Of a stretch of DNA of 64,000 nucleotides, positions 1 through 14,677 are shown in pieces. This DNA comes from Oscillospiraceae bacterium (lineage in GTDB: Bacteria > Bacillota > Clostridia > Oscillospirales > SIG627), in the NCBI GenBank assembly GCA_015063985.1, contig SVTC01000003.1, positions 5,162-69,161 of the forward strand, in the 5' to 3' direction. Below the pieces are notes generated by a model, which did no database searches, was not told the DNA's origin, and worked only from the letters and a program-made list of their open reading frames with translations. Within the stretch, counting starts at the first letter, position 1. Every line of letters begins with the position of its first letter. The position numbers were made by a program, and so were the translations under genes.

Positions 1-933
1 AGGCTTTTTGCCGGTGCGTATGCAATCCACAAAGTGCATAAGCTCGTGCTCGGTATGCTTGGAGCTCTCCCCGTCTCTCTTCCATACCAGGGATACGTTG
101 CCCTCGGAGGCGTATTCTCCGGGCTTATGCTCGGCGTGCTTATTATAAAGCTTAAGCTCTCCGGTCTTATGGTCGTATTCCAAAAGACCCTGCTCTGTAT
201 GCACCTGGAAGTTATAGCCCATTCTGGTGCCTCTTGCACCCCAGGTAGCACCGTGATAGCCGATAGCTCCGTTCTTGAACTTCAATATAACAGAGCTTGT
301 GCCCTCCTTAAGAAGCCAGGGGGTACCCACTCTTGTACCTAAGTGAGAGCCGCTTACGGGCTCGCCCAGGAACCACAAAAGCAGGTCTATATAGTGGCAT
401 CCGTGGCTGAAAAGCTGACCTCCGCCAAGCCTTGCGGTGGCAGTCCATGTACCCTCCTTGGCAACGGTGAGCTGCTCGGTCCACACGGACATCTGTATTA
501 TCTTTCCAAACTCTCCGCTGTCAAGAAGCTCCTTCAGTTTAACGATTCCCGGCCAATAGCGCACGGGGTATGCGCACATCAATACCACCTGCTCCTCCTC
601 GCAGATCTCAATAAGTCTGAGACATTCCTCCTCGGAGTTGCAAAGAGGCTTTTCCATCAAGATGTGCTTTTTCTGCCTTGCAAAGAATACTCCGCACTCA
701 AAGTGAAGATCGTGAGGCAAAACGACAAGCACCGCATCCACGTAGTCAGCCATTGTCTTATAGTCGGTGGTGACGTATGGATCATCCAGCACGCTTGCCA
801 CCTCTCTGGCTCTCTCGATCTCAATATCGCAGACCGCGGTTATCTCCACGTCCGCCTTGCATTGATTTATTCCCTGGGCATGAGTCTTCATCATACCGCC
901 GCATCCGATAAGTCCGAGTCTTATTCTTTCCAT
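1..933 (-). CDS. Gfo/Idh/MocA family NAD(P)-dependent oxidoreductase (3' end outside window)
   Basis: My own minus-strand translation from the ATG at 933-931 gives MERIRLGLIGCGGMMKTHAQGINQCKADVEI..., a Rossmann GxGxxG N-terminus. The frame is open to the window edge. Track ORFs 34-342 and 343-936 (+) are its antisense shadows. Confidence 0.8.
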   Translation of the reverse strand, partial: MERIRLGLIGCGGMMKTHAQGINQCKADVEITAVCDIEIERAREVASVLDDPYVTTDYKTMADYVDAVLVVLPHDLHFECGVFFARQKKHILMEKPLCNSEEECLRLIEICEEEQVVLMCAYPVRYWPGIVKLKELLDSGEFGKIIQMSVWTEQLTVAKEGTWTATARLGGGQLFSHGCHYIDLLLWFLGEPVSGSHLGTRVGTPWLLKEGTSSVILKFKNGAIGYHGATWGARGTRMGYNFQVHTEQGLLEYDHKTGELKLYNKHAEHKPGEYASEGNVSLVWKRDGESSKHTEHELMHFVDCIRTGKKP

Positions 934-1057
934 TGATTTTTTCTCCCCTTTATGTTATAATTGGTTTGCGAGGCTATTATAGCATTATTTTTTCACCGTG
1001 TCTTTGCACTATTTTAAGTGATTTTTTGCACTTTTTTTAGATAAAAGGAGAAAAGAC

Positions 1058-1912
1058 GTGAACCGCTATGTTAAGATTCCCCTTCAAAAGCTGATCGACG
1101 TAAGCTCCATCGTTACCGCCCACGTTTACGATCTCAGGGGAAAGATGGTAAAGGGCGAGAGGCACGATTTCCCGGAGATATTTTACGTTATGGAGGGAAA
1201 CGAGCATTGCATTACCGAGCTCGGAGACTGCTATCTCAGCGAGGGTCAGCTGATAATATACGGAGCCAACGTATACCACGGTGTTCCCACCCCCACACAA
1301 AGAGGAAACTGCATTGCGGGAATAATATCCTTTGTAAGCGAAAGCCCTGCACTTGATGCCATCTGCAATAAGGTAATAACTCTTACCGCCGCCCAAAAGG
1401 AAAGCTACCTTGAGCTCCTTGCCAAAGCCTGCAATAGCTTTGAATCGGTAAAGGATCCCGTGCTTAAGGGAATGAAGCCCAGAGAAAACGCCGATCCCGC
1501 ATCCCTGCAAAACATAAAGAACGGTCTGGAGCTCTTTTTGCTGGACATCCTTCATAATCCCGATCCTCTGACCAACCGCCACCACTTTCTGAAAATGCGA
1601 TTCGACGAGGTCTACCGTTATTTTTCAGCAAACATTCATAGGCAGATAAGCTCCGAGCAAGCAGCAAAGGAGCTGAACATGAGTGTGTTTTTCTTAAGAG
1701 AGCTGATAAAAAAGAAGAAAAATTGCGGTATAACCGAGTATTTTATATCTCTTAAGCTTGATAAGGCAAAGGAGCTTTTTCAAAGCACACCGATGAACGT
1801 AACGGAGGTATCTGCCGCTTTGGGCTTTTCCTCCATACACTACTTTTCCCGTCTTTTCAAAAAGAAAACGGGACTCTCTCCCCTGCAATACATAAAAACA
1901 AAGGGCAAATAA
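1058..1912 (+). CDS. AraC family transcriptional regulator (cupin-like sensor + HTH)
   Basis: The C-terminus ...VSAALGFSSIHYFSRLFKKKTGLSPLQY is the canonical AraC HTH. GTG start with an AAAGGAG RBS 7 nt upstream. Confidence 0.85.
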   Translation: MNRYVKIPLQKLIDVSSIVTAHVYDLRGKMVKGERHDFPEIFYVMEGNEHCITELGDCYLSEGQLIIYGANVYHGVPTPTQRGNCIAGIISFVSESPALDAICNKVITLTAAQKESYLELLAKACNSFESVKDPVLKGMKPRENADPASLQNIKNGLELFLLDILHNPDPLTNRHHFLKMRFDEVYRYFSANIHRQISSEQAAKELNMSVFFLRELIKKKKNCGITEYFISLKLDKAKELFQSTPMNVTEVSAALGFSSIHYFSRLFKKKTGLSPLQYIKTKGK

Positions 1913-1916
1913 AAAT

Positions 1917-1944
1917 ATCCGCCTTCGAAAAAACGAAGGCGGAT
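1917..1944. terminator. Bidirectional intrinsic terminator between convergent genes
   Basis: Stem atccgccttcg / cgaaggcggat with an A6 loop, flanked by A-run and T-run. Confidence 0.7.
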
Positions 1945-1950
1945 AGCTTT

Positions 1951-2220
1951 TTAATCCTCGTCGTCTACCTCGACAACGTCCTCTTCAACCTCCTTCTTGG
2001 CATTTTCATCAATACCAAGCTTTTGCTGAACCTTTTTCTTAGCTCTGCGCCAGAAAACGGTTATTACCGCACCTGCTGCCACTGCCACACCTGCAACGAC
2101 CTGAATGGTGTAGGTCATAACAGAGGGATCGATGTATGCAAAGGCGCCGACGGTAAATATCATACAAAGACAAAAGAAATTAAAGACGGTGGAAAGGCAA
2201 CCCATACCCGAGCTGTTCAT
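1951..2220 (-). CDS. Small membrane protein with acidic C-terminal tail (unknown function)
   Basis: 89 aa with two hydrophobic segments and the tail EEDVVEVDDED. Its start lies 1 nt after the stop of the upstream YidC-TagF gene, so it appears to belong to the same operon. Confidence 0.55.
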   Translation of the reverse strand: MNSSGMGCLSTVFNFFCLCMIFTVGAFAYIDPSVMTYTIQVVAGVAVAAGAVITVFWRRAKKKVQQKLGIDENAKKEVEEDVVEVDDED

Positions 2221-2221
2221 A

Positions 2222-4093
2222 TTATTTCTCCTTTTTATTTTGTTTTTCTCTTATAGCCGAGAGAATATATCTTCCTCCGACCTCTCCCGATCTGCCAAAG
2301 TTTGAAACGTATTTTTCCCTGATCTCGAGGATCTTATCACTGTATTGGTCTGCCCGCTGCAAAAGCAAGGCTATTCTTTCGCTCAGACCATCCATAGCCG
2401 CGGGATCTACCCTTATACCGACCCTGTCTCTGAGAGAAAACTCCAAAGGCTCGATCCCAAGCTCGGTATAGCGGGGATTGTTTATCTTTGGCTTAGTATC
2501 CACAAAAACCGCGGGCTTAAGGGTAACGAAGGAAAATTCATAAGCCGTGCCCGACCAATCGGTAATAAGAACGTCACTGTCAAATATGGATGAATTACCC
2601 GAAAAATCAAGCTCGAAGCTAAGGTCGTCCCCAACCTTATCGGAATACCTTGCCACAATGGCATCCATTCTCGGGCCAAAGCGCTTTACGTATTCGGGAT
2701 GCGGTCTGATCACAAGCTGAAAGCCCTTGCCGTAAAGCTCACTGATTATCTTATCCAAGCAGCTGTCAAGGATATTATCGGGCTGCCAGGACGGAGCGAT
2801 AAGCACCTTGGGCTTTTCTCTTTGGGGCTTTTCGAGAGCAAGATAGCTTTCATAAAGCTGCTCGAGCTGACCGTAGCCTGCCGCAATAAGCTTCTTTTCG
2901 GGAAGTGAATAAAGCTTTTCAGCGGCACGGATCTCATCAAACTGAAACTCGCCCACACAAAAGACGGTATCGTAATGATCCAAGGCTCCCGTATTAAGCA
3001 CCATGTGTGTGCTCAGGGGATAATGGAACATATAGATGTACTCAATATCCTTGCGGACGTAGCTGCGCTTATAATGGAAATTATCAAGATCGGGGCAGGT
3101 CATGACCACCACGTCCGCATCCATTTTCATCATTAGTGTAATAAGCCTTGTGGGTCCGATGTAATAGGGCTTTATGCGGGGCTCGGACTCTGCCAATTTA
3201 AAGATCATATCCTTGGGATCGTTGGTAACGTAATGGATAATAACGTTGGATCTTTTCAGCAAAAACTCAATAACGTCCTTGAAGTATTTATAAAATCCGC
3301 TTTTTTCGGAATAGAAGACCAAATGCTTATTGGCAACGGAGAAAAAGCGCTTATAATCTGCCTTTTCTCTCTTTTTATCCTCGGGACTGACTCCCTTGGA
3401 CAGACCACCCATAGCCTCGAGCTCCTTTTTGCTTCTTTCCAGCTCGGCGTAATCAACGCGCTTTTTCGGATCGAGAACAAGGTTCAACACAAGCTGCTGA
3501 AGGATACTGAAAAGATTTGAGAATATCCAGTAGATCCCTACTCCGAGGCTTACGAAAAAGCCAAGAAAAAGGCTTATAAAAATGCTTATGCCGTTGGTCA
3601 TCCACTGCTCCGAGCTGCCCTGCTCCCTTTGAAGGGGATTGAGCTTATTCTGGCTTAGTCCCAACGCCAATGCGGCAAGGCCTGCGGCAAAGGGCATAAG
3701 AACGCTCAGTCCTCCCGCTTGCGAGGGAATGAGGTTAAGGGGAGTGTCTACCTCTCCCATAACACTCTTGACCGCGCCTATTACCCCGATAAGCATAACA
3801 AGCTGGATTATCATGGGAACGGTGCTTGCAAGAGGATGATAATGCTCCTTTTTATAAAGCCTTTGGGTTTCTTCGGCAATAGTGTCCTTATCGCCGTAAT
3901 ACTTTATCTTCAGAGAATTGAGCTTCGGCGTGATCCTGAGCATGGATATTGCATTCTTCTGCACCCACAGACCTACCGGAAAGAGAATTATTTTTGTAAG
4001 CAAGGTAAAAGCGATTATTGCAAGGGCATAGTTATTGATAAAGCCGTAGCAAAGCTGCAAAAGCGCAGCCAAGGGCGCAACTATTATATCCAA
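2222..4093 (-). CDS. Fusion protein: N-terminal YidC/Oxa1-family insertase domain + C-terminal CDP-glycerol glycerophosphotransferase (TagB/TagF-like) domain
   Basis: Residues ~1-230 carry YidC hallmarks (AIIAFTLLTKIILFPV, LYKKEHYHPLAS, GVGIYWIFSNLFSILQQ). Residues ~260-623 resemble the Glyphos_transf family (APSWQPDN, RPHPEY, DVLITDWSGTAYEF). Confidence 0.7.
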   Translation of the reverse strand: MDIIVAPLAALLQLCYGFINNYALAIIAFTLLTKIILFPVGLWVQKNAISMLRITPKLNSLKIKYYGDKDTIAEETQRLYKKEHYHPLASTVPMIIQLVMLIGVIGAVKSVMGEVDTPLNLIPSQAGGLSVLMPFAAGLAALALGLSQNKLNPLQREQGSSEQWMTNGISIFISLFLGFFVSLGVGIYWIFSNLFSILQQLVLNLVLDPKKRVDYAELERSKKELEAMGGLSKGVSPEDKKREKADYKRFFSVANKHLVFYSEKSGFYKYFKDVIEFLLKRSNVIIHYVTNDPKDMIFKLAESEPRIKPYYIGPTRLITLMMKMDADVVVMTCPDLDNFHYKRSYVRKDIEYIYMFHYPLSTHMVLNTGALDHYDTVFCVGEFQFDEIRAAEKLYSLPEKKLIAAGYGQLEQLYESYLALEKPQREKPKVLIAPSWQPDNILDSCLDKIISELYGKGFQLVIRPHPEYVKRFGPRMDAIVARYSDKVGDDLSFELDFSGNSSIFDSDVLITDWSGTAYEFSFVTLKPAVFVDTKPKINNPRYTELGIEPLEFSLRDRVGIRVDPAAMDGLSERIALLLQRADQYSDKILEIREKYVSNFGRSGEVGGRYILSAIREKQNKKEK

Positions 4094-4109
4094 TAAAGCC
4101 TCCCCCCTT

Positions 4110-5930
4110 TTAATAGAAATTACCGATCACGGGATTTTCTTCCAGAATGGTCCAATTATCGAAATAGCCCGCCTCTCCTTTGACAAGGTAGGTAACAAAG
4201 CTATCCTCCTTGCGGCTTTCGGAGCCCATGACGCTCTTGAAATAGTATCTGTCTATCTCCTCGTCCTCGCCGATCTCGTCAAGAGCTCTTCCGTATACTG
4301 CGGGATCGTTCACCCCAACCGCCTTCATCAACGTGGGAAGAATATTTGCGGTGCATACCTGGGCGGAGCTTTTTTTCAGCTCGACTCCCGAGGAGCCCGA
4401 GGGCTTATAGAAAATACCGATCTTGGTTGCCTTCAGCAGAGGCTTGTAATCGTTTACCGCGGAGCCGTGATCGCCTGTAATGATAATGGTGGCATCATCG
4501 TAAATACCCAGATCCTTCATCTGTTGGAAGGCATCCTTAAGAATTCTGAAGGAGCCTCTTGTCTGGGCAAGAACGTCAGTGTTGGTTTCACTGCGTGTGC
4601 CCTCCTCGGTAAGAGTATAGGGCGCGTGAGGGCCGTAAAGATGGTAAAACTTGAAGCTGTTTTGCTTCTCGGTAGCGGTTGCCGTTTCAAAGCCGGGCTT
4701 GTAGGCGGCATCGTCAAACTCGTAAAGCTTTTCAGTGTCAAGCTCGTGTATACCGTTGTTGAAATAGTTGGTATCTCCCCAGAAAAAGGGCTTTAAGCAA
4801 AGAGGCGAATAGCGGTATGCGCTGAGCTCCATCAGCTTTTTCACCGTTTGAGCGGGCTTAAGACCCAGCTTTCCGTTGGTGGCGTTGTCGACGTATTTTG
4901 ATACGTATTCCGCATCACTGAAAAGATAATCTATCTTGGTGTAAAAATCAATGGTGTAGCCTGCCCCGTCAATATCCCCAAGCACGTCCTTGCCGTTAAA
5001 GGTCCAGGAGTCCTTATAAAAATCCGCAGTGGGCATATTGTATGCCATACCGTCCGAGGCGGTCATAAGCTGATTGAGAGCAGGCTTTGTACGGGCATAG
5101 CTGCTTATAGCGTTGGTATACTGGGTAAAGCCGTCCATCCAATCAAAGCAATCGGGATCGTTTGCCATCATTCGCTCTATGTAATCGTAATCAAGTCTGT
5201 CAAGAACGAAAACGAAAACGTTTTTCCCCTCGGAGTAATCGAACATATCCTCCTGGGTGAGATAATATTCACTGATGGCTCCCTTATTCGTGCTCTTGTA
5301 CGCACCTGCAAAGATCGCCACCGTAGGCGCCGCCTGCATTACGATAAGAGCTATTGAGACCACCGTGACAAGCCCCGTCCAGACCTTTCTTTTCAGATAC
5401 AGAACGAAAAGGATCACAAGAATAATGGCTATCCAAGCCAAGACGTTGATAAGAGCATCCCCTGAGGAGGCTGACCAATCCACGGCATCTCCGGTAAGCG
5501 TGCCCATTTTACCGTTGAAAATCGCCGCCTGAAGATATCCGCAAACGGTCACTCCGAAAAGAGCGGTGATAGTATAATTATAGATCCTACCTCTGAGGAT
5601 CGAGATCACAGGTGTGACAAGCGCAAACACCGACACTGCGAGAACAGCAAGGTAGCCCGCCACGTCTTTATAAGAAAAAGTAAAGGACTTCCCTGAAAAC
5701 GCAACCATTTCCAATGGACCGAAGAAGATAAAGGTATACGCCAGCGCCGCCATAACAAGCGCCGAGATCCCAAGCCTTTTCCAATAGCTTCTTTTATCGC
5801 TCCAAAGCGCCGTAAGCTTTTTGGCAATAACGCCGGGATCATTTAATTTTTTCTCTTTTACAGCTTCCGTTACCCTTTCTTCCGCCTTACTGTCGGAGGG
5901 CTCGGTGCTTTTTATCTCTTTTTCTTCCAT
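4110..5930 (-). CDS. LTA-synthase/sulfatase-like membrane phosphotransferase (alkaline-phosphatase superfamily)
   Basis: N-terminal multi-TM region followed by an extracellular domain with NVFVFVLD, HLYGPHAPY and TGDHGS motifs. It sits 16 nt upstream of the YidC-TagF gene. Confidence 0.7.
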   Translation of the reverse strand: MEEKEIKSTEPSDSKAEERVTEAVKEKKLNDPGVIAKKLTALWSDKRSYWKRLGISALVMAALAYTFIFFGPLEMVAFSGKSFTFSYKDVAGYLAVLAVSVFALVTPVISILRGRIYNYTITALFGVTVCGYLQAAIFNGKMGTLTGDAVDWSASSGDALINVLAWIAIILVILFVLYLKRKVWTGLVTVVSIALIVMQAAPTVAIFAGAYKSTNKGAISEYYLTQEDMFDYSEGKNVFVFVLDRLDYDYIERMMANDPDCFDWMDGFTQYTNAISSYARTKPALNQLMTASDGMAYNMPTADFYKDSWTFNGKDVLGDIDGAGYTIDFYTKIDYLFSDAEYVSKYVDNATNGKLGLKPAQTVKKLMELSAYRYSPLCLKPFFWGDTNYFNNGIHELDTEKLYEFDDAAYKPGFETATATEKQNSFKFYHLYGPHAPYTLTEEGTRSETNTDVLAQTRGSFRILKDAFQQMKDLGIYDDATIIITGDHGSAVNDYKPLLKATKIGIFYKPSGSSGVELKKSSAQVCTANILPTLMKAVGVNDPAVYGRALDEIGEDEEIDRYYFKSVMGSESRKEDSFVTYLVKGEAGYFDNWTILEENPVIGNFY

Positions 5931-6044
5931 TTTTCCTTTATTGCTCCTCTTTTTCTTTCACATATTATATCACAGTTAATTTTGTTTTGCAATACACCCA
6001 CTGAATTTTTATCTTTCTCGGGACTCTATCGGGATAAAGCCCGG

Positions 6045-6632
6045 CTATTCCGGATCAATACTCTCTCCAACGTCTTTATCAACGATATCACCGATGACGT
6101 CGTCACGTATATATTCCTCAACTCCCTCGGCATTACCCAAAGGATTTATCAACACGTAATAATGCACGGTGCTTATACCCTCTCCCTTATCAATAAATCT
6201 CAAGGCGACCGCGATCTCGTTTTTCACTCCGTTTATAGAATATACCTCACCGCGAAGCCTTTCAAAGGCACTCCATTCACCGTCGCCGTTCTTCCAGCCC
6301 GCCTTTACAAAAACCTCGGAAAGCTTATTTCCCAGCCTTTCCTTCGCTATGACCTTGCCCTCCTCATAGCCGGAATAATCCCCTTCCTCCACGTTAAAGG
6401 AATATACCTGCACGAGCTGTCCTTCCTCGGTGAAAGGCAAGCTTGAGGACTGAGCTTGGATCAGCGGCAACAAAACAAGCACTCCCGCAACCACACCCAT
6501 CAAAACACATGCCGCAACACAAAATCCTTTGACCCAAGCTTTCCTCCTGTTTGCAAAATGAAAGCCTCTCGCCTCGGTAATCAGCTCTTCATCTATATCT
6601 GAAAAGACCTCGAACAAAGCTTCACTTTTCAT
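6045..6632 (-). CDS. Putative anti-sigma factor / single-pass membrane protein
   Basis: One TM segment at about residues 33-55. Its start overlaps the sigma-factor stop by 4 nt (6629-6632). The function is inferred from context only. Confidence 0.45.
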   Translation of the reverse strand: MKSEALFEVFSDIDEELITEARGFHFANRRKAWVKGFCVAACVLMGVVAGVLVLLPLIQAQSSSLPFTEEGQLVQVYSFNVEEGDYSGYEEGKVIAKERLGNKLSEVFVKAGWKNGDGEWSAFERLRGEVYSINGVKNEIAVALRFIDKGEGISTVHYYVLINPLGNAEGVEEYIRDDVIGDIVDKDVGESIDPE

Positions 6633-7189
6633 AATTTAACCCCTCTTTCAGACAGATAGGTATACATTCTTTTGCGCAAGCGCTTCAATGCCATTGTTAC
6701 GGCACCCTCGCTCATTCCAAAGCGTAATGCGATGGATGCTACACTGTCGCTATACCAGTACCTGCACACAAGCATTCCTCTTTTTTCGGGAGAAAGGCTA
6801 TATAAAAAACCGTTTATCGCCATTACAAGCTCTTGTCGCTCCAACTCCGACTCAAGCTCACCGCTCCCCGATACAAGCTCTCCCAGCTCATCCAGAACAA
6901 CGGGAAGCTCTCCTCCTCCCCTTTTGGCGGCTGTATTGTACTTGTATCGGTTAAGAGATAGATTACGAACTATCTTTCCCAGAAATGCGGATAAAACGCA
7001 AGGTCTGTGTGGAGGTATCGCATTCCAGGTTTTTAAATAAGTATCGTTGACACATTCCTCCGCATCCAATCTGTTTCCCAAAATATTATTGGCGATCGCA
7101 TCACAAAAGCTTCCGTATTTTGCGGCAGTGGCAGGAATTGCCTCCTCATTTCTGTCCCAATATAAGCTGATTATCCTTTCATCATCCAC
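6629..7189 (-). CDS. RNA polymerase sigma-70 family (ECF-type) sigma factor
   Basis: The region 2-like stretch (DAEECVNDTYLKTWNAIP) and the region 4 HTH (SVASIALRFGMSEGAVTMALKRLRKRM) are recognisable. Confidence 0.8.
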   Translation of the reverse strand: MDDERIISLYWDRNEEAIPATAAKYGSFCDAIANNILGNRLDAEECVNDTYLKTWNAIPPHRPCVLSAFLGKIVRNLSLNRYKYNTAAKRGGGELPVVLDELGELVSGSGELESELERQELVMAINGFLYSLSPEKRGMLVCRYWYSDSVASIALRFGMSEGAVTMALKRLRKRMYTYLSERGVKL

Positions 7190-7266
7190 CCTTTAAGCCC
7201 CCTTTGAAAAACTTCTCTATAGATTTAGACAACATTAAAGTAATTATCTAACACAAAAAGCAAAAA

Positions 7267-7288
7267 GCCGAGTCGAAAACGACTCGGC
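7267..7288 (-). terminator. Intrinsic terminator of the 1083-aa gene
   Basis: Stem gccgagtcg / cgactcggc with a 4-nt loop, followed on the minus strand by TTTTTGCTTTTT. Confidence 0.75.
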
Positions 7289-7299
7289 TCGGCTTGTTA

Positions 7300-10200
7300 T
7301 CAGATCTCTTGGTACACAACGGGAGAAGCGTCAAAATCCACCTCAAGGGCTGTGATCTTGTTATCCTTAAGCAGTAAAAATTCCTGCTTGGAGCTTCCCT
7401 GCAAAACCGCTTTGCCATCCTCATAGGTGACTACGTCGCAATCTTCACTCTGGCAAAGTATACCCACCTTGCCATTCACGCTGAGCTTTTTCACAACGCC
7501 CAATCCAAGGGTCACGGGATAGCAGTCATCTCCTATGCAAACACGTGCTCTTCTCTGCTTATCGGCATCGTTCCACCAGTCAACGGCAACAAGATATGCC
7601 TCCTTGGTACCGTCCTCCAACTCGTACACCACTGCTTGGACGTCATCGCCCACCTTGACCTTGACATCCTGCGCCTCGAAGGCCTCGTCGCTATATCTTT
7701 CGAAGCTTTCGGTGTAGAGCTCCTTGATAGCCTCGTTCGCAGGATAAAGAAGGGTATTAAAAATAATTATCTTTCCTTCCCCAACCTTCTTTTCAGCCAT
7801 CAAGGGATATCCCTTTTGGGTCCTCTCCTTTATATCAAGTCCGTACAGGGAAAGGTTTGTTGCTACGGGAACGGTATTGCCGTTAAAATCATCCTGCTCG
7901 ATCTTTGGAACGCCTGCATATCCGATGGCATCCAAAAGCTCGTTTTCAAAGAAATCGAGCTCGTATTTCTCGGTCTTTTCTCTGAGGGAGGTACAGGAAA
8001 GATGACCGAGAGTAAGCTGAAGCACGGCACCCTTTCTGACCTTTTCGAGAATACGCTCAAGATCCTTCTTCTCGGCAAGGTTGTATCCGAAGAAGCAAAG
8101 GAAGGGATAATCCTTGAAATCCTCCTCCACGGGGATTATATTCATCGAGCCTCTGGGGTTCTGGCTGACAAGTCCGATCTTGCCGTTCTTGGTGTCGGCA
8201 TTTCCGCTTGTGGCAGGCCATTTGCTGTGAGGATAGAAGCTATGTCCGGGGATCCTCCAAGAAAGCTCCGCATCAAATTTTCTGGAAAAACGTGCGGCGG
8301 TATTTCCCCAGACACATCCGCCAAAGCAGGGCGCGCCGTCGCATCTGCCGTGGAGAACGCCCACGGTTGCCGCAAGTCTTCCCCTTCTGGAATGGGTGGA
8401 GATCCATCTGTAGAAGTCCTTTTGCTGATCAAGGTGAGATCTGCAGGCAATGCCGTGACGGTTGTGGAAGGCATATCTTTCTTCAAGCCTCCAAAGACCC
8501 TCTTCGGTGTTATTTTCGTGAGCACCCTGCATCCAGGATACGTAGAGCGCAAGGCGGTATCTGCGGTAATGGCCCTCTTCGTCGTGGGGCTGAGTAGACC
8601 ACTGCAAAGCGTGATGTACACCCACTCTTGGAATATTATAAGCCTCAGCCGCTCCTCTTAATGCCGCCATAAGAAATTCCGTGGGGCTGTCCATAGTCTC
8701 TGCACCGATCCAGGAATATCCCGCCTGACAGAAATACTTAAAGAAGATGCTGGGTCCGGTATGTCGGGTAGCGCCGGTGCAGTCCTTTGCAATGGTTCTC
8801 AAAGAATTTATCACCGCGTTTGCCTGGATCGCACTGTCTGCGGCAAGCTTGGGATCGTGGCAGAGCCACATAAGCTTTCCGTCATCAAACTGGTCCTCGG
8901 GGTAGAATTCACTGCCGGCGTGCTCGGGATCGGCGTGTCTGTATCTGTTGAACTGATCAAAATACAGAGCCGTATCATAGAATTTATTCATATTCCAGAA
9001 ATCACCGTTATTGTCGTGGGCACCCCAATAGCAGTATGCACCGTCTCTCTCGTGAAGCTGTCTGCCCAAAAATCCCGAAGGCTCGCCTGTGTCCTCGCCA
9101 AGCTCCGAAAGGGAGGGCTGAGCGCAATAGCCTGAGGGCTCTCTGCCGTCCACCATATGGGAATATTTCATTCCAAGAGAGTTCATCAGCTTAACAAACT
9201 TCTTCCACATGGGCTTGTTGAGCATTCTCGTTCCGCTCCAACGGTAGGTGGGACGGATGGTAAGCATATTACCGACGCGGTTTTGCATATACCACTTGAT
9301 GTAATTAAAGGTATCGTGATCGGTCTGCTCAACGTAGATAAGGTCGCCCGTACCGGTGATAACACCGTCGGAAAATCTGCGGATCACTCTGCCTATCTTC
9401 ACGTTGTGAGTGGTCTCGCCGTCGGAAAGAGCTATCTCAAGACCGTTCTGGAGCTTATTGGAAACAAGCCTCAGTGCCGCAAGACCTTCGCTTTCAAATA
9501 CAAGGGAGGAAACTACCGCGGCACTGCTTTCCACCTTCAGAGTGCAGGGCTTATGAATATCCAGCATCAGGCTGAATTCCTCGCCGCATACCGCCACCTC
9601 GGGAAAGCTTACAACGTCAAAGCTGTTCTTATCCTCGGATACTATTCCCACCTCGTGCAAACGGTACGGAAGTGCGCCGAACCAATCGGAAAGAAGGGTG
9701 AATCTTATACTGTTCTTTCCCTTCTTCATCACTCCGTCGGGAAGGGTTATCTCCTTTTCCGAATATCTGTGACACCTTTCAAAGAAAATGTCGCTGAAGA
9801 CCTCGGTGCCGTTTACCTCAATTCCCATCTTGGGCCATTCGCTCTTGGATAGATTTACTCCATACCAGTTGAACATATACTGATATATGGCGCTGTCTCT
9901 TGCAAAGCCGGGCATTATATTAAAGCCGTCGGAGGTGACAAGAGCGGGATGCTCAAAGTAGATATCACCCTCGGTCAATTCCGTTTCAAGAGAATAAATT
10001 ATATTGGCAGTGGTCTCCTTGGGCAAATTGAGCTTCACCGAGAACTCCTGCCAATCGTAGCTGCCCCGGGGGAAATCTATATCAATAATGGAGTCTGCGG
10101 GATATTTGGTGTGATTGTTATAGAAGTCTTCGCTCTTTTTGTTTCTTACCTCAATACGGAGTCTGGCATAGCCGCCCTCCTTTACCTTCAGCCCGTCTGC

Positions 10201-10551
10201 CTTGGCACGGACGGACAAAACGTAATCCTCCGTGGGGGAATGAAGACCGAGATAGGAAAGTCCCAGCGGAAACGCCATCTTTCTGAAGGCGCAACGGGGA
10301 AAATCGGCTCCCTCGAATTTAAGCGCCCAGGCATCCTCTTCTCCGGGAACAAGGCTTTCGTCAATGCGCTTGTACATCGTGGGGCAGCAATATTCGCACT
10401 TCCAGAAGTAGAAGTTATCCACCTCGCCGGTGAAAAATACTCGGTGCTCCTTTCCCGCTTCAAGATCGTAATCAAACTCAAACTCAAAGCTCTGAGAGGG
10501 CTTTATCTTTTGGTCATCCTCTTTGTAAAATATCTGTGTATACTTTTCCAT
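7300..10551 (-). CDS. Large cytoplasmic protein of unknown family (1083 aa); possible glycan-processing enzyme by context
   Basis: Long uninterrupted ORF. I prefer the start at MEKYTQIFY (ATG 10551-10549) because GGAGGAAGCT lies directly upstream. No signal peptide and no motif I can assign. It is divergent from the GH20 triplet. Confidence 0.6.
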   Translation of the reverse strand: MEKYTQIFYKEDDQKIKPSQSFEFEFDYDLEAGKEHRVFFTGEVDNFYFWKCEYCCPTMYKRIDESLVPGEEDAWALKFEGADFPRCAFRKMAFPLGLSYLGLHSPTEDYVLSVRAKADGLKVKEGGYARLRIEVRNKKSEDFYNNHTKYPADSIIDIDFPRGSYDWQEFSVKLNLPKETTANIIYSLETELTEGDIYFEHPALVTSDGFNIMPGFARDSAIYQYMFNWYGVNLSKSEWPKMGIEVNGTEVFSDIFFERCHRYSEKEITLPDGVMKKGKNSIRFTLLSDWFGALPYRLHEVGIVSEDKNSFDVVSFPEVAVCGEEFSLMLDIHKPCTLKVESSAAVVSSLVFESEGLAALRLVSNKLQNGLEIALSDGETTHNVKIGRVIRRFSDGVITGTGDLIYVEQTDHDTFNYIKWYMQNRVGNMLTIRPTYRWSGTRMLNKPMWKKFVKLMNSLGMKYSHMVDGREPSGYCAQPSLSELGEDTGEPSGFLGRQLHERDGAYCYWGAHDNNGDFWNMNKFYDTALYFDQFNRYRHADPEHAGSEFYPEDQFDDGKLMWLCHDPKLAADSAIQANAVINSLRTIAKDCTGATRHTGPSIFFKYFCQAGYSWIGAETMDSPTEFLMAALRGAAEAYNIPRVGVHHALQWSTQPHDEEGHYRRYRLALYVSWMQGAHENNTEEGLWRLEERYAFHNRHGIACRSHLDQQKDFYRWISTHSRRGRLAATVGVLHGRCDGAPCFGGCVWGNTAARFSRKFDAELSWRIPGHSFYPHSKWPATSGNADTKNGKIGLVSQNPRGSMNIIPVEEDFKDYPFLCFFGYNLAEKKDLERILEKVRKGAVLQLTLGHLSCTSLREKTEKYELDFFENELLDAIGYAGVPKIEQDDFNGNTVPVATNLSLYGLDIKERTQKGYPLMAEKKVGEGKIIIFNTLLYPANEAIKELYTESFERYSDEAFEAQDVKVKVGDDVQAVVYELEDGTKEAYLVAVDWWNDADKQRRARVCIGDDCYPVTLGLGVVKKLSVNGKVGILCQSEDCDVVTYEDGKAVLQGSSKQEFLLLKDNKITALEVDFDASPVVYQEI

Positions 10552-10678
10552 AGCTTCCTCCGCTTTTTTACTTACCCAAAGACTAACACAAACCACTGAA
10601 AAAGTCAAGTTATTCTTCGGATATTCTTGTATGATGTAATAAATTTTTTTAATAATATCACAAAGTATTTTTTTAATA

Positions 10679-10759: not shown

Positions 10760-12658
10760 ATGATAAAGCTTGATTTTGAAAATATTCACGAAAGCCTTAA
10801 GGCTCCCGCTCTGGAGGCATTGGAGCTTCTTGACATCGAGGAGGGCGAGCACGGTATACCCGTAATCGCAGAAAACAAGGGCGACGGGCTGGAAGTATAT
10901 TTTTCCAACAACGGCGCTCTTGTTATTGAATACAGCCGACTTTGCGAATTCTTCCGCGGGCTTTCCCACGTAAAGAAAATAGTTAACGACGGTATTCCCG
11001 TAAGGGAAAAGGCACACTTTGAGTGGCTGACCTATATGGCGGACGTTTCAAGAGGCGGAGTTCACAACGTAAAAAGCGTCAAGCTTTTGATAAAATATCT
11101 CGCTCTTATGGGATATAACGATCTTATGCTCTACACCGAGGATACCTATGAGCTGCCCAAATACCCATACTTCGGTCACCAGAGAGGAAAATATACCCTC
11201 GCCGAATTAAGAGAGCTTGTGGAATACGCAGAATTATTCGGTGTCACACTCTCGCCCTGCATCCAGACACTGGGTCATCTTTTCTCCGCTCTCAAGTGGC
11301 CCTGCTTTTCAAACATTAAGGACACTTCGGACGTGCTCTACGTGGGCAAAGAAGAGACCTATGAATTTCTCGACTATATGTTCGAGACCCTTTGCAGCGT
11401 ATTCAAGACCCGCCGCTTCAACATAGGTATGGACGAGGCACACTCTCTCGGCACAGGCGCAAGGCTTGAAAAGGAGGGACACGTAAGCCGCGGCAAGCTT
11501 ATGGAGATCCACCTGAAAAGAGTCGCCGAGCTTTGCAAAAAGCACGGTATCAAGCCTCTTATCTGGAGCGATATGTTCTTCAGACCCTACGCCGACGATA
11601 TCTACTATTCAAAGGACGTGGTAATTCCGCAAAGCGCCATAGACTCCGTTCCCGAGGGCTTTACCCCGGTCTACTGGGACTACTACAATTTCGACAGAGA
11701 CGAGGAATCCAAGGCCATATTTGACAATATGATGGCTCAGCATCTGCGCTTTAAAGGCCCCATCGGCTTTGCGGGCTGCACCTGGAGATATCTGGGCTTT
11801 GCCCCCAACAACGCCTTCAGCCTTATTTCAAGCAAATACCATGCGGATTCCTGCCTTGAGCACGGCATAAGGGATATTACCGTCACCTCCTGGAGCAACA
11901 ACGGCTGTGAGGCAAGTATGTTCTCCGCCTTCCCCGCAATGCTTCTCTATGCACAAAAGCTATATACCGGCTGCAGAGGCGAAACAGACGTTTCGGGTAT
12001 GCTCTACGACATTTTCGGAGTAAGTCTTGAGGATTTTATTCTTCTGGATCAGCCCAACAGAGTTCCCGATGCTCCCGGAATAGAGGTAAGCGCAGGCAGA
12101 AACCCCTGCAAATGGCTCTTATACAACGACTGTCTCTGCGGAAAAATGGACAGACACATCTCCACGGAATACGCTCCCTTCTACGCCGAGCTCAGTGAAA
12201 AGCTATATGCAAAAAAGGACTTAAAGCGCTTCGGCTACGTTTTTGAGACCCTGGGCGCTCTTTGTAAGGTCCTTGCTACGAAGGCAACACTGTCCGTAGA
12301 GCTTAGAAACGCCTACCTTTCGAAGGATCTTAAACGCCTAAAGGAGGTCTCGGATTCCATAACCCCGATGATAGAGGATCTGGACGTCTTTACGGAAGTC
12401 TACAGAAGACAATGGTTTAAAGAGAACAAGCTCTTCGGATACGAGTCCCCGGAAATGCGCTTCGGCGCCATAAGACAAAGAGCTCTGGGCACTCAAAAGA
12501 CCGTCGAGGCATACTTAAAGGGCGAGCTTGATTCCATCGAGCCGCTGGAGGAGGCGGTCTTATATTCCGATTGCAGACCCGACGACTCCCCCAGAAACAA
12601 GGTTGCAACAGTGGAAAACTACTTTGACTGTGTTCCCGTCACCTTTTCTCTGAGATAA
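10760..12658 (+). CDS. Glycoside hydrolase family 20 beta-N-acetylhexosaminidase-like protein, paralog 1
   Basis: FNIGMDEAH matches the GH20 catalytic (H/N)xGxDE signature within a TIM-barrel-like core. No signal peptide. RBS is ACAGGAGAAA. Confidence 0.75.
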   Translation: MIKLDFENIHESLKAPALEALELLDIEEGEHGIPVIAENKGDGLEVYFSNNGALVIEYSRLCEFFRGLSHVKKIVNDGIPVREKAHFEWLTYMADVSRGGVHNVKSVKLLIKYLALMGYNDLMLYTEDTYELPKYPYFGHQRGKYTLAELRELVEYAELFGVTLSPCIQTLGHLFSALKWPCFSNIKDTSDVLYVGKEETYEFLDYMFETLCSVFKTRRFNIGMDEAHSLGTGARLEKEGHVSRGKLMEIHLKRVAELCKKHGIKPLIWSDMFFRPYADDIYYSKDVVIPQSAIDSVPEGFTPVYWDYYNFDRDEESKAIFDNMMAQHLRFKGPIGFAGCTWRYLGFAPNNAFSLISSKYHADSCLEHGIRDITVTSWSNNGCEASMFSAFPAMLLYAQKLYTGCRGETDVSGMLYDIFGVSLEDFILLDQPNRVPDAPGIEVSAGRNPCKWLLYNDCLCGKMDRHISTEYAPFYAELSEKLYAKKDLKRFGYVFETLGALCKVLATKATLSVELRNAYLSKDLKRLKEVSDSITPMIEDLDVFTEVYRRQWFKENKLFGYESPEMRFGAIRQRALGTQKTVEAYLKGELDSIEPLEEAVLYSDCRPDDSPRNKVATVENYFDCVPVTFSLR

Positions 12659-14663: not shown

Positions 14664-14677
14664 TAAGGAGAGAAAAA

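Follow-up and report, generated by a model that had tools for sequence, protein, structure and literature searches.

Organization of the locus

The window, i.e. the whole stretch of DNA that was analysed (64,000 nt), carries a three-gene operon on its minus strand. The genes code for an LtaS-like enzyme (4110-5930, 606 aa), a protein in which YidC-type and TagF-like domains are fused (2222-4093, TTG start, 623 aa), and a small protein (1951-2220, 89 aa). The strand and coordinates of the three ORFs and the intergenic gaps of 16 nt and 1 nt agree with the initial annotation. The following features were delineated.

5964..5992, minus strand: promoter-like site ahead of the LtaS-like gene, with TTGCAA and TATAAT (with TG) separated by a spacer of 17 nt
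4110..5930, minus strand: LtaS/EptA-like membrane phosphotransferase (Pfam Sulfatase, hydropathy, profile A3)
3470..4093, minus strand: YidC/Oxa1-type membrane domain, fusion residues 1-208 (PF02096, TIGR03592, AF2, Foldseek)
3338..3469, minus strand: helical linker, fusion residues 209-252, which joins the last YidC transmembrane (TM) segment to the catalytic domain
2222..3337, minus strand: cytoplasmic GT-B domain of the TagF/TagB/TarL superfamily, fusion residues 253-623 and stop codon (PF04464, profile A1, fold)
1951..2220, minus strand: small procoat-like subunit, 89 aa (homologue alignment, hydropathy, locus co-occurrence)
1916..1945, either strand: hairpin resembling a bidirectional intrinsic terminator (12-bp stem, then a T run)

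The promoter-like site was obtained by a consensus scan of the sequence and is a consensus match only. A Shine-Dalgarno sequence (GGGGGAGG) is located upstream of the TTG start of the fusion gene, and AAGGAG upstream of the small gene. The terminator-like hairpin lies 6 nt past the stop codon of the small gene and ends the operon.

The fusion is genuine. The identical 623-aa protein is encoded on 9 contigs, and at least 273 matches in species-representative genomes of Clostridia and Coriobacteriia are collinear over residues 1-623, so that the proposed junction is covered. Sequence identity is 69-100% for more than 120 full-length homologues, and more than 240 full-length homologues are found among the matches listed, from isolates and MAGs and including complete chromosomes. 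As nothing was found in favour of an assembly or frameshift artefact that merged two separate genes, and as invariant residues span the junction, this explanation is already refuted. The tight operon proposed initially is borne out, and the three-part unit of fusion, LtaS-like enzyme and small membrane protein is conserved in two phyla. An ECF sigma/anti-sigma pair, which had been counted as a neighbour of the module, is found beside it in none of 80 genome loci.

The YidC-TagF-like fusion protein

The initially claimed complete YidC domain is borne out, with the entire profile of Pfam 60KD_IMP (PF02096) matched by residues 22-204 (111.2 bits, cut-off 35) and TIGR03592 passed with 91.3 bits (cut-off 84.3). 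In this domain, an amphipathic helix at the N-terminus is combined with a core of five TM helices and a hairpin on the cytoplasmic side (residues 38-82). Its AF2 model has a pLDDT of 87, and structural matches by Foldseek include 3wo7 (target-normalised TM-score 0.70) and 6al2. Its scores lie far below all NCBIfam equivalog cut-offs for YidC (e.g. 76 vs. 365), so the protein is a paralogue rather than the housekeeping insertase. The groove residues T30, K34, Q97, Y188, W189, S192, N193, and Q200 are conserved in 159 fusion proteins. The groove is intact, but its conserved Arg, which is R366 in E. coli YidC and aligns to K34, is replaced by Lys in 154 of the 159 fusions (97%).

The linker contains residues P209, D214, Y215, L218, R242, D246, and F250, which are invariant in 38 sequences from two phyla. 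In the AF2 model it forms helices at 209-212, 215-232, and 237-252, with a pLDDT of about 70 at residues 221-240.

In the GT-B domain, His357 (FHxxxSTHM) and His465 (RPHPE) are invariant. The match of the window protein to Glyphos_transf (PF04464) is weak (21.1 bits) and just under the cut-off of 22.1, which is clearly passed by its relatives (35-61 bits). The family profile A1 matches the TagF-family enzyme TarL (8va1, E 4.8e-5), with RPHP aligned to KMHP, and the Foldseek matches to the GT-B fold include the CMP-bound capsule multienzyme 8a0c. The superfamily assignment of the C-terminal domain and its covalent fusion to YidC hold, with the reservation that the window protein itself stays below the Pfam threshold.

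The LtaS-like enzyme and the small protein

Hydropathy places five TM segments at the N-terminus of the LtaS-like protein (residues 53-208), ahead of an extracellular domain of the alkaline-phosphatase superfamily (Pfam Sulfatase, 34.4 bits, cut-off 25). A putative metal site is formed by D244/D247 and D487/H488, and Thr281 occupies the position of the nucleophile, which is Thr or Ser and never Cys in 25 homologues. Like LtaS and EptA, the enzyme has Asp/His metal ligands, and it lacks the Cys of true sulfatases. Profile A3 matches LtaS (2w5q, E 2.7e-12), phosphonate monoester hydrolase (4upk, E 6e-14), and YejM; there is no NCBIfam match.

The small protein begins with a signal-peptide-like segment (residues 1-28) which ends in G-A-F-A, with predicted cleavage before Y29. 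The mature N-terminus would be YIDPSVMTYTIQ, followed by one TM segment, the basic stop-transfer sequence RRAKKK, and GIDENAKKEVE with an acidic tail. Among 120 homologues, Y[ILVM]DP follows an AxA-type site in 119, with Ala at -1 in 118 and Ala/Val at -3 in 118; YIDPSVMTY is the invariant N-terminus after this signal-peptidase site. The protein, initially described as having two TM segments, is better described as having one, preceded by a signal peptide. Its acidic tail, which had also been pointed out, is not conserved in its exact sequence but retains a net acidic character and the IDEN..KEVE motif. Neither Pfam nor NCBIfam has a family for this protein.

Conservation, natural fusions, and neighbouring genes

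Among 59 well-flanked loci (at least 6 kb on each side), the small gene is present in 55, the LtaS-like gene in 44, and a cytidylyl- or nucleotidyltransferase, mostly of the LicC/PntC type, in 38. In the remaining 15 loci, an LtaS-like gene is absent from the surrounding 8 kb or so; the operon of an LtaS-less clade consists of YidC-TagF-like, small, AEP (aminoethylphosphonate) transaminase, PEP mutase, and Ppd genes.

Parts of the module are also joined into single chains: YidC, TagF-like domain, small element, and sulfatase (P0134, P0126, P0136, P0152); sulfatase, YidC, and TagF-like domain (P0128, P0123); and YidC, TagF-like domain, and choline kinase (P0140). For P0122, whose YidC domain alone passed the Pfam filter, the order sulfatase, YidC, and TagF-like domain is deduced from length and match positions. 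The AxA|YIDPS element of the triple fusions lies exactly where the chain is required to cross the membrane outward and back. The small element is joined to the LtaS-like enzyme in Coriobacteriia and to the TagF-like domain elsewhere; in P0230, P0239, and L094 the TagF-like domain is borne on a hairpin resembling the small protein, without YidC. Other lineages have a free-standing version of the catalytic domain (about 380 aa). At 24 of 160 loci, the small gene has an S26 signal peptidase gene next to it; in P0146, the peptidase is fused to YidC-TagF-like.

The donor genes beside or in the operon are LicC plus choline-kinase fusions, nucleotidyltransferase plus aminotransferase fusions, and AEP genes (CTP-transferase/PEP mutase, phosphonopyruvate decarboxylase, AEP transaminase). 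A stand-alone cytidylyltransferase of the TagD type was confirmed at only two of 160 loci (L014, L124); looser TagD-like matches also catch PEP mutase through its cytidylyltransferase domain. In L001, the closest genome relative, the nucleotidyltransferases are IspD-like and LicC/PntC-like. Olsenella uli carries the module (L076). This species and Atopobium rimae have been reported to make CMP-AEP, with the steps after activation left uncharacterised and only candidate LicD-like transferases suggested (PMC6697681). The module would fill this gap in the literature.

A proposed head-group relay

Domain identities, topology, conserved co-occurrence, natural part-to-part fusions, and the tie to head-group activation genes being established, we propose, with a probability of roughly 0.4, that the three proteins form one membrane-spanning machine, by which the cell envelope would be decorated with a small head group linked through phosphate or phosphonate. 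The TagF-like domain would load a lipid, the YidC groove and the small subunit would pass the head group, and the LtaS-like enzyme would transfer it outside. Such a relay from inside to outside is compatible with the topology: the GT-B domain is cytoplasmic because of the five-TM YidC core, and the catalytic domain of the LtaS-like enzyme is outside.

Judging from the neighbours at other loci, a head group X would be activated in the cytoplasm as a CDP or CMP derivative; likely groups are of the choline/ethanolamine type, an amine from the nucleotidyltransferase-aminotransferase fusion, or 2-aminoethylphosphonate; glycerol phosphate or that of another polyol would be rare. By the chemistry of its family, the TagF-like domain would then move phospho-X from CDP-X to the hydroxyl of a membrane-embedded acceptor. 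With diacylglycerol or a glycolipid as the proposed acceptor, this would yield a dedicated donor lipid. The TagF-like domain probably adds a single head group and not a polymer. It counts against this step that, to our knowledge, TagF-family enzymes act on glycans or polyols and are not known to accept diacylglycerol.

The conserved linker may fix the YidC-type domain rigidly next to the catalytic one, so that the polar head group could cross to the outer leaflet via the hydrophilic groove. The small subunit, which would be inserted like phage procoat and cleaved at AxA|Y, may sit with the YidC domain and bridge it to the partner enzyme. E. coli YidC is a scramblase for glycerophospholipids in vitro (PMC11047089). 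The conserved groove and linker are in keeping with the earlier suggestion that the recruited YidC fold is more than an anchor. Finally, phospho-X would be passed to the LtaS/EptA-like Thr nucleophile and on to the surface acceptor, with the lipid freed for reuse; where two or three LtaS-like paralogues occur in tandem, one donor could serve several acceptors.

Several observations count against the relay. The proteins in which the TagF-like domain is borne without YidC indicate that YidC is dispensable for the chemistry in some lineages, and the 15 loci without an LtaS-like gene indicate that the outside step is not always encoded with the module. No head-group activation gene was found in the window or in the approximately 7 kb of contig beyond the small gene, and the pTM of the AF2 model of the fusion is only 0.66.

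Alternative explanations

A somewhat less probable alternative to the relay is that the YidC domain serves specifically for insertion and as a platform for assembly. It would insert and then hold the procoat-like subunit or the equivalent N-terminal hairpin of the LtaS-like enzyme, and so bring the cytoplasmic TagF-like and extracellular LtaS-like enzymes into one complex. A dedicated S26 signal peptidase would assist, no lipid would pass through the groove, and the TagF-like domain would modify a cytoplasmic precursor directly, like LicD. The exact M13 procoat layout of the small protein and the adjacent or fused S26 peptidase suggest an insertase role at least as naturally; every groove residue used by canonical insertases is retained, and movement of the module between phyla would favour its having its own biogenesis factors. 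However, this leaves the rigid covalent fusion of insertase and enzyme via a conserved linker unexplained, as well as the family-wide change from Arg to Lys. Furthermore, most loci lack the dedicated signal peptidase, such small proteins are normally handled by the housekeeping YidC, and P0230 and P0239 do without a fused YidC.

That the YidC domain is a passive membrane anchor for the TagF-like enzyme, with its insertase or scramblase properties as irrelevant relics, is improbable. The membrane surface is the required place of work of TagF-family enzymes, and elsewhere a simple hairpin (P0230, P0239, L094) or no anchor at all suffices for the catalytic domain. Yet T30, K34, Q97, Y188, W189, N193, and Q200 are nearly invariant in about 160 sequences from two phyla which share 46-50% overall identity. 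A relic would not retain the cytoplasmic hairpin, and the regular company of a procoat-like partner would be unexpected.

Synthesis of a teichoic-acid-like polymer was the weakest part of the initial annotation, and we consider it highly improbable that the fusion polymerises or primes a glycerol-phosphate polymer from CDP-glycerol which the LtaS-like enzyme extends or attaches. This reading draws on the name of the Pfam family (CDP-glycerol glycerophosphotransferase), the resemblance of the partner to LtaS, the lack of choline or AEP genes near the window locus, and the two loci with TagD-type genes. Against these two stand the 38 of 59 well-flanked loci with mostly LicC/PntC-type transferases. 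Neighbours are mostly of the LicC/LicA type, nucleotidyltransferase-aminotransferase or AEP genes, and CDP-glycerol genes are rare; L001 has other nucleotidyltransferases instead. Phosphocholine and AEP are not polymerisable because they have no free hydroxyl, and TagO/TagA/TagGH-type or LCP genes are not recurrent beside the module.

Comparison with known systems

No paper on the YidC-TagF-like module was found, and databases name its proteins only "YidC insertase" or "hypothetical". The fusion stands beside the small protein, and usually an LtaS-like enzyme, in Gram-positive species of the gut and mouth that number in the hundreds. If the proposed relay is right, the module would represent an undescribed machine for phosphate-linked envelope head groups.

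With YidC/Oxa1/SpoIIIJ insertases, the fusion shares the five-TM core, the cytoplasmic hairpin, the passed Pfam and TIGRFAM domain cut-offs, and the positions aligned to E. coli T362, R366, Q429, Y516, Y517, S520, N521, and Q528. It differs in that a 370-aa enzyme domain, attached via the conserved linker, replaces the ribosome-binding C-terminal tail, in its groove Lys, and in the lack of an N-terminal lipoprotein signal and an extra TM segment. Phage procoat is the classic YidC-only substrate and is cut by leader peptidase. The small protein has the layout of M13 procoat: signal peptide, short acidic loop (with the invariant Asp of YIDPS), TM segment, and basic tail. Such a partner accompanies the fusion, with an S26 peptidase at some loci; reference cases are the M13 procoat/YidC/leader peptidase pathway and MifM-YidC2.

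TagF/TagB/TarL/TarK and TagF-like capsule polymerases have in common with the fusion the GT-B fold, the family-level Pfam assignment, the TarL profile match including the HP motif, the two invariant histidines, the cytoplasmic location at the membrane, and the genomic tie to cytidylyltransferases. The fusion is very divergent, however, and membrane-integral via YidC instead of peripheral, and its associated donors are mostly choline-type, amine, and AEP rather than CDP-glycerol or CDP-ribitol.

The LtaS-like enzyme resembles LtaS, EptA/MCR-1, PptA, OpgB, and GacH in its N-terminal multi-TM anchor (five segments, as in LtaS), extracellular catalytic domain, Thr/Ser nucleophile, and Asp/His metal ligands, but LtaS is no closer to it than phosphonate monoester hydrolase or choline sulfatase is. 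Those enzymes take their head groups from bulk membrane phospholipids, whereas the LtaS-like enzyme is paired with a cytoplasmic CDP-X enzyme and, in Coriobacteriia, carries a small procoat-like element at its N-terminus.

The genes for choline kinase, LicC/PntC, PEP mutase, Ppd, and AEP transaminase which adjoin or are fused to the module are those of the Lic-1 (LicA/LicB/LicC/LicD) and Pnt (PntC) systems. YidC-TagF-like acts as the presumed transferase, alone or together with the LtaS-like enzyme, and LicD was not noted among the neighbour clusters that recur. The module would unite the CDP-donor logic with the extracellular logic of the PptA/EptA type; a 2023 survey found no evidence for the coexistence of Lic-1 and PptA in one species (PMC10434233).

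By analogy only, in GtrA/B/C, ArnC/ArnE-F/ArnT, and DltABCD a cytoplasmic loader, a translocation element in the membrane, and a transferase on the outside are also encoded together. The protein families are entirely different, and the translocator proposed for the module has a YidC fold.

Gene organization and flanking signals

The three genes of the module are encoded on the minus strand, and the following features were identified (window positions).

5992-5964, minus strand: promoter-like site (TTGCAA, 17 nt, TATAAT, with an upstream TG)
5930-4110, minus strand: ORF of the LtaS-like enzyme, 606 aa
4093-2222, minus strand: ORF of the YidC-TagF-like fusion, 623 aa, TTG start
2220-1951, minus strand: ORF of the small protein, 89 aa
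1945-1916: terminator-like hairpin with a 12-bp stem, after the stop codon of the small gene

The ORF coordinates bear out the gaps reported in the initial annotation, which are 16 nt between the LtaS-like and fusion genes and 1 nt between the fusion and small genes. Each ORF is preceded by a Shine-Dalgarno sequence: GGGGGAGG for the fusion gene (6 bases 5' of the TTG start), AAGGAG for the small gene, and AGAGGAG for the LtaS-like gene. Because of the promoter-like site, the terminator-like hairpin, and the close spacing, the three genes look like a single transcription unit. When regulatory RNAs were sought in window positions 1-8000, no Rfam family was matched.

The gene of an ECF sigma factor (6629-7189, minus strand) shares 4 nt with that of a 195-aa single-TM protein (6045-6632, minus strand) which has no Pfam match and is likely an anti-sigma factor. 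This pair had been described as neighboring the module and does lie upstream of the operon in the window, but it adjoins the module in none of the 80 genome loci and was thus rejected as a part of it. Further upstream, positions 7300-10608 (minus strand) carry a 1102-aa ORF without a Pfam match, followed by a strong terminator-like hairpin (7290-7265). Two paralogous plus-strand genes (10760-12658 and 14579-16579, about 630-670 aa) have the N-terminal sequence MIKLDFEN..SLKAPA in common; the former is annotated on the contig as Glyco_hydro_20.

Distribution of the fusion and conservation of the module

An artefact or frameshift at the domain junction, which the initial annotation had named as a risk, is rejected by collinear homologues and by residues which are invariant through the junction (P209, D214, Y215, L218, R242, D246, F250). 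The fusion is real, and the identical 623-aa protein is encoded on 9 contigs. The best 120 database matches are mostly 618-653 aa long and 69-100% identical, with a single 480-aa fragment among them. A scan of one genome per species gave 273 matches to the fusion; the 80 which were retrieved align over essentially residues 1-623 with 46-75% identity. Carriers among the Clostridia are Acutalibacteraceae, Oscillospiraceae, Lachnospiraceae including Lachnospira eligens, and Anaerotruncus. Those among the Coriobacteriia are Eggerthellaceae, Olsenella uli, Atopobium minutum, Collinsella, Adlercreutzia, Gordonibacter, and Berryella wangjianweii (complete chromosome); an Atopobium-seeded search adds Lancefieldella parvula, from a cluster with 1972 members. 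In the databases, the fusions are named only "membrane protein insertase YidC", "membrane protein" or "hypothetical protein".

Gene neighborhoods were compared in 59 related loci which extend at least 6 kb to either side of the fusion gene (well-flanked loci). Near the fusion gene, the small gene was found in 55 of these, the LtaS-like gene in 44, a cytidylyl- or nucleotidyltransferase in 38, an S26 signal peptidase in 15, and a PEP mutase in 12. The three-gene module originally proposed is thus a conserved unit among the well-flanked loci. In Coriobacteriia, the LtaS-like ORF is about 720 aa long and includes the small protein as its N-terminal portion. Tandem LtaS-like paralogues follow a single YidC-TagF-like gene on the Berryella chromosome (three; L058:9907-17014) and at loci L080, L033, and L076 (two each), and several of them carry the small-protein element N-terminally. 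This suggests that one loading enzyme serves several transferases on the outside.

When the C-terminal domain alone was compared to a library of 50%-identity representatives, 2126 proteins were matched at E <=1e-3 and 514 at E <=1e-30. The domain occurs in several architectures, as listed in the table.

Table. Domain architectures of TagF-like proteins (P, homologous proteins; L, a related locus)
Architecture; examples
YidC + TagF-like; the common architecture
YidC + TagF-like + small element + sulfatase in one chain; P0134, P0126, P0136, P0152
Sulfatase + YidC + TagF-like; P0128, P0123, and P0122 (inferred from length and match positions, only YidC having passed the Pfam filter)
YidC + TagF-like + choline kinase; P0140
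S26 signal peptidase + YidC + TagF-like; P0146
Small-protein-like hairpin (AYIDPMTGS or AYLDPGTGS) + TagF-like, no YidC; P0230, P0239, L094
TagF-like, free-standing; about 380 aa

Such natural single-chain fusions between the parts are strong evidence that the parts act together. A metagenome scan with a profile built from stand-alone TagF-like homologues, aimed at finding the membrane partner that takes the place of YidC, returned 80 loci, 76 of which were YidC-fused.

Some Eggerthellaceae carry two complete copies of the module (L034 and L049 on contig CAJUQH010000006.1; L037/L048; L019/L063), one of which adjoins aminoethylphosphonate (AEP) and LicC/LicA genes while the other does not. Four module-bearing contigs (L020, L053, L054, L056) come from bins labelled Bacteroidaceae, Prevotella, Bacteroidales or Alistipes. 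The ABC-transporter protein of L020 is 95% identical to its counterpart from L022, a Subdoligranulum bin, so L020 is probably mis-binned rather than truly from Bacteroidota.

The fusion protein

The N-terminal region is YidC-like, as initially annotated, with scores above the curated cut-offs for PF02096 (60KD_IMP; 111.2 bits vs 35, residues 22-204, profile positions 1-162 of 163) and TIGR03592 (91.3 vs 84.3). The NCBIfam equivalogs for housekeeping YidC failed by a wide margin (best 76.3 vs 365; SpoIIIJ 54.1 vs 377), and the domain is therefore classified, on these profile scores, as a divergent paralogue and not an ortholog of the housekeeping insertase.

Modelling with AlphaFold2, for which 38 sequences of two phyla were used (mean pLDDT 87, pTM 0.66), gave a YidC-type helical bundle at residues 2-206, with helices at 22-36, 38-64/69-82 (a hairpin), 87-112, 128-151, 160-180, and 183-206. 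The five-TM core and the cytoplasmic coiled-coil hairpin after its first TM (38-82), a YidC feature, are both present in the model. Foldseek matched YidC from Bacillus halodurans (3wo7; target-normalised TM-score 0.70, rmsd 3.2) and also that from E. coli (6al2). In the fusion, the enzyme domain stands in place of the usual C-terminal tail of YidC and follows a helical linker modelled at residues 209-252.

We aligned those positions of E. coli YidC which line the hydrophilic groove in published YidC structures, and counted the corresponding residues in 159 fusion-type YidC domains.

Table. Groove positions of E. coli YidC and their counterparts in the fusion
E. coli YidC; fusion; occurrence among 159 domains
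T362; T30; 152
R366; K34; Lys 154, Arg 5
Q429; Q97; 158
Y516/Y517; Y188/W189; 158/159
S520/N521; S192/N193; N193 159
Q528; Q200; 137

Based on these counts, the groove, the state of which had initially been raised as a question, is considered intact, with a family-specific change from Arg to Lys that differs from the canonical residue and retains the positive charge.

The assignment of the C-terminal half to the TagF type holds for the family: several relatives clear the cut-off for PF04464 (Glyphos_transf; P0121 35.8 bits, P0124 52.0, P0181 60.9, P0134 45.2, P0140 42.3), but the window protein itself, with 21.1 bits, stays slightly under the gathering score of 22.1, so that its membership as judged by this profile is marginal. 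A profile of the domain (A1) matches TarL, a TagF-family ribitol-phosphate polymerase (8va1; E 4.8e-5), and aligns the invariant RPHPE of the TagF-like family on KMHP of TarL. The catalytic histidine pair of S. epidermidis TagF is His444/His584. In the AlphaFold2 model, residues 256-622 form a two-Rossmann GT-B domain with alternating strands and helices (pLDDT mostly 85-96), for which Foldseek reports many GT-B enzymes at E about 1e-7, including the CMP-bound capsule multienzyme 8a0c.

The LtaS-like enzyme

The 606-aa protein has five hydrophobic segments (53-71, 94-112, 120-138, 159-177, 190-208) followed by a Pfam Sulfatase domain (residues 238-540; 34.4 bits vs 25). It thus has the multi-TM anchor and extracellular alkaline-phosphatase-superfamily domain which are a feature of LtaS/EptA-type enzymes. 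An NCBIfam scan of the protein gave no family, and a PDB search with the single sequence gave nothing significant, so that a family profile was required for matches. The profile of 25 homologues matches phosphonate monoester hydrolase (4upk; E 6e-14), choline sulfatase (7oz8; E 5.8e-13), LtaS (2w5q; E 2.7e-12), and also YejM/PbgA. Because 4upk and 7oz8 score slightly better than LtaS, the enzyme is best filed, as far as profile matches go, at the superfamily level.

Among the 25 homologues, the putative metal ligands D244 (invariant) and D247 (near-invariant; VLDxxD), H435 (invariant; H..G.H.PY), and D487 and H488 (invariant; ADHG) are retained. The nucleophile position, assigned by position and not by structure, is Thr or Ser in 25 of 25 (T281 in the window), and the CxPxR motif of true sulfatases is absent from all aligned homologues. 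The protein is therefore a predicted phosphotransferase-type member of the alkaline phosphatase superfamily. It has a common design (five-TM anchor, Thr nucleophile) with LtaS, EptA, PptA, OpgB, and GacH, which transfer a head group from a membrane phospholipid via such a Thr to an extracellular acceptor.

The small procoat-like protein

The 89-aa protein, which had been read as having two TM segments, instead has a signal-peptide-like segment and one TM. Pfam and NCBIfam scans assigned no family. Among 120 homologues, Y[ILVM]DP occurs near position 25 in 119, with Ala at -1 in 118 and Ala or Val at -3 in 118. This AxA before an invariant Tyr has the form of a textbook signal-peptidase-I site, and cleavage is predicted. 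The predicted mature protein of about 63 aa (from Y29 in the window) begins with YIDPSVMTY(T/A)IQ, the Asp of YIDPS being invariant. A single TM (38-56) is followed by RRAKKK and then by (G)IDEN..KEVE, kept in 114 of 119 proteins, and a net-acidic tail. The acidic tail EEDVVEVDDED had been pointed out initially; its net acidic character is conserved among homologues, but its exact sequence is not. Stalling by this tail in the manner of MifM was set aside because the gene order varies (here the small gene follows the fusion gene, whereas elsewhere it precedes the LtaS-like gene) and because nothing beyond net charge is conserved in the tail.

In its layout, with a signal peptide, an acidic residue in a short loop, a single TM, and a basic flank, the protein matches M13 procoat, the classic YidC-dependent substrate, which is cleaved by leader peptidase. 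For the small protein, we infer both YidC dependence and cleavage. At 24 of 160 loci (L024, L032, L036, L045, L059, L067, L068, L100, L143, L145-L159), the small gene has an S26 signal peptidase gene as its immediate neighbor, and in P0146 (861 aa) this peptidase is at the N-terminus of the YidC-TagF-like protein. A dedicated signal peptidase is unusual for this kind of module.

In the triple fusions, a hydrophobic segment and AxA|Y(I/V)DPS are located exactly where the chain would have to exit from and return to the cytoplasm. This supports a topology with the TagF-like domain inside and the YIDPS loop and the LtaS-like catalytic domain outside. P0230, P0239, and L094:107-286 have a signal-peptide-like segment, AY(I/L)DP(M/G)TGS, and a TM fused to a TagF-like domain, with no YidC. 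The YxDP element therefore belongs to a wider class of N-terminal membrane hairpins on envelope enzymes, for which there is no Pfam family.

Neighboring genes and the likely head group

Several activation genes recur beside the module according to Pfam. These are a fusion of a LicC-type nucleotidyltransferase with a choline/ethanolamine kinase (kinase part in 21 of 160 loci), a fusion of a nucleotidyltransferase with a class I/II aminotransferase (aminotransferase part in 23 of 160), and a set for aminoethylphosphonate, composed of cytidylyltransferase-PEP mutase, phosphonopyruvate decarboxylase (Ppd), and AEP transaminase. An Orn/Arg-type decarboxylase recurs as well. Stand-alone cytidylyltransferases of the TagD type (CDP-glycerol) were confirmed at two loci only. 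These recurring genes tie the module family, as judged by gene content, to cytidylyl-activated small head groups, mostly zwitterionic and non-polymerisable. The context argues for CDP or CMP donors other than CDP-glycerol in most loci.

In a human-gut clade represented by L127, genes for the YidC-TagF-like protein, the small protein, AEP transaminase (a class-V aminotransferase), PEP mutase (cytidylyltransferase-PEP mutase), and Ppd are on one strand. No LtaS-like gene is found within 8 kb in this clade; its product may be a phosphonolipid, or the partner enzyme may be encoded at a distance. The same consecutive order, plus an FrhB-like protein, is seen at L127:7038-14068 and about 15 near-identical human-gut loci (L125-L142).

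At L001, which with 73% identity is the window's nearest relative among the genomes, the small gene is directly followed by genes for an HTH-IspD-like cytidylyltransferase, a LicC/PntC-like nucleotidyltransferase, and an MFS transporter. Head-group activation genes were found neither within the 64-kb window nor in the adjoining contig sequence, which reaches about 7 kb beyond the small gene and thus some 5 kb outside the window. This stretch of the contig codes for an AraC regulator, an oxidoreductase, a PBP5-type carboxypeptidase, and a UgtP/MGDG-synthase-like diacylglycerol glycosyltransferase (L161:13608-14723, about 3.3 kb beyond the window start). Enzymes of this last type make the glycolipid anchor of LTA; it is absent from the other 160 loci and was rejected as a conserved partner.

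Proposed mechanism and alternatives

According to the data, a CDP-X-type transferase in the cytoplasm and a head-group transferase with a Thr nucleophile on the outside are tied together, often covalently, by a YidC-type domain and a procoat-like subunit. The most economical reading, to which we assign a probability of about 0.4, is a relay across the membrane. The TagF-like domain would load phospho-X on a membrane-embedded hydroxyl, the head group would cross the membrane at the groove of the YidC domain, and one or several LtaS-like enzymes would hand it to the final acceptor(s). Diacylglycerol or a glycolipid is the favoured lipid acceptor because TagF naturally acts on a glycerol hydroxyl and diacylglycerol is the product released by LtaS-type enzymes; the two half-reactions would hence close a cycle. 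E. coli YidC scrambles glycerophospholipids in proteoliposomes (PMC11047089). Against the relay stand the 15 of 59 well-flanked loci without a nearby LtaS-like gene and the hairpin-anchored TagF-like proteins without YidC; its lipid intermediate is purely hypothetical.

The main rival, which we consider possible though somewhat unlikely, is that the YidC domain is specialised in inserting the small subunit and holding it in place, aided by S26 peptidases, with no lipid passing through the groove. It accounts well for the procoat-like design of the small protein and for the signal-peptidase fusions, but leaves unexplained why fusion to the enzyme is rigid and conserved and why Arg was switched to Lys. 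Insertion and relay are compatible with each other. That the YidC domain is a purely passive anchor is improbable and agrees poorly with the conservation of the groove. The synthesis of a teichoic-acid-like poly(glycerol phosphate), as initially annotated, is conceivable in this organism but very doubtful, being contradicted by the gene context of the family with its mostly non-polymerisable head groups and TagD-type enzymes at two loci.

We tentatively suggest that the YidC/Oxa1 fold, joined to a TagF-like synthase inside and paired or even fused with LtaS-like transferases outside, might have been co-opted as the membrane-crossing element of an enzyme pathway, its groove moving either a dedicated head-group lipid or the head-group-bearing N-terminal loop of the small protein. 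If so, the module would be a self-contained donor-lipid cycle that puts choline-type, amine or phosphonate groups on Gram-positive surfaces, and a natural in-vivo case of an insertase as a lipid conduit.

Significance and comparison with known systems

YidC is among the most studied proteins of membrane biogenesis. We are not aware of any publication on a covalent fusion of YidC to an enzyme, and full-text literature searches for such a fusion returned incidental co-mentions only. The database label "YidC" hides a distinct and widespread paralogue, which is carried by common inhabitants of the human gut and mouth, among them Lachnospira eligens, Lancefieldella parvula, Olsenella, Collinsella, Adlercreutzia, and Gordonibacter. 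Zwitterionic groups on the cell surface, for example phosphocholine, shape recognition by the host.

Lipids are scrambled in vitro by insertases of the Oxa1 family (PMC11047089). With its groove placed between cytoplasmic and extracellular head-group transferases, the module offers a direct genetic and biochemical system for testing whether this activity matters in the cell.

Individually, the parts of the module belong to known superfamilies (YidC/Oxa1, TagF-like GT-B, and the LtaS/EptA-like alkaline phosphatase fold), and its neighbor genes come from families of the Lic-1 and Pnt pathways of head-group activation. No LicD was noted among the recurring neighbors. Activation of AEP as CMP-AEP was established in Olsenella uli and Atopobium rimae in 2019, with the subsequent steps left uncharacterised and only candidate LicD-like transferases proposed (PMC6697681). 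O. uli carries the module beside a LicC/LicA-type gene (L076), and the module is a concrete candidate for these steps in oral and gut Actinobacteria such as this species. The donor for PptA-type enzymes is described as unknown (PMC10434233), and the module is a concrete candidate for CDP-choline chemistry feeding outside transferases of the PptA/EptA type, a link unexplained so far (PMC10434233). The novelty lies in combining a covalent union of YidC and enzyme with a procoat-like partner and with CDP-donor chemistry coupled to an outside transferase of the PptA/EptA type.
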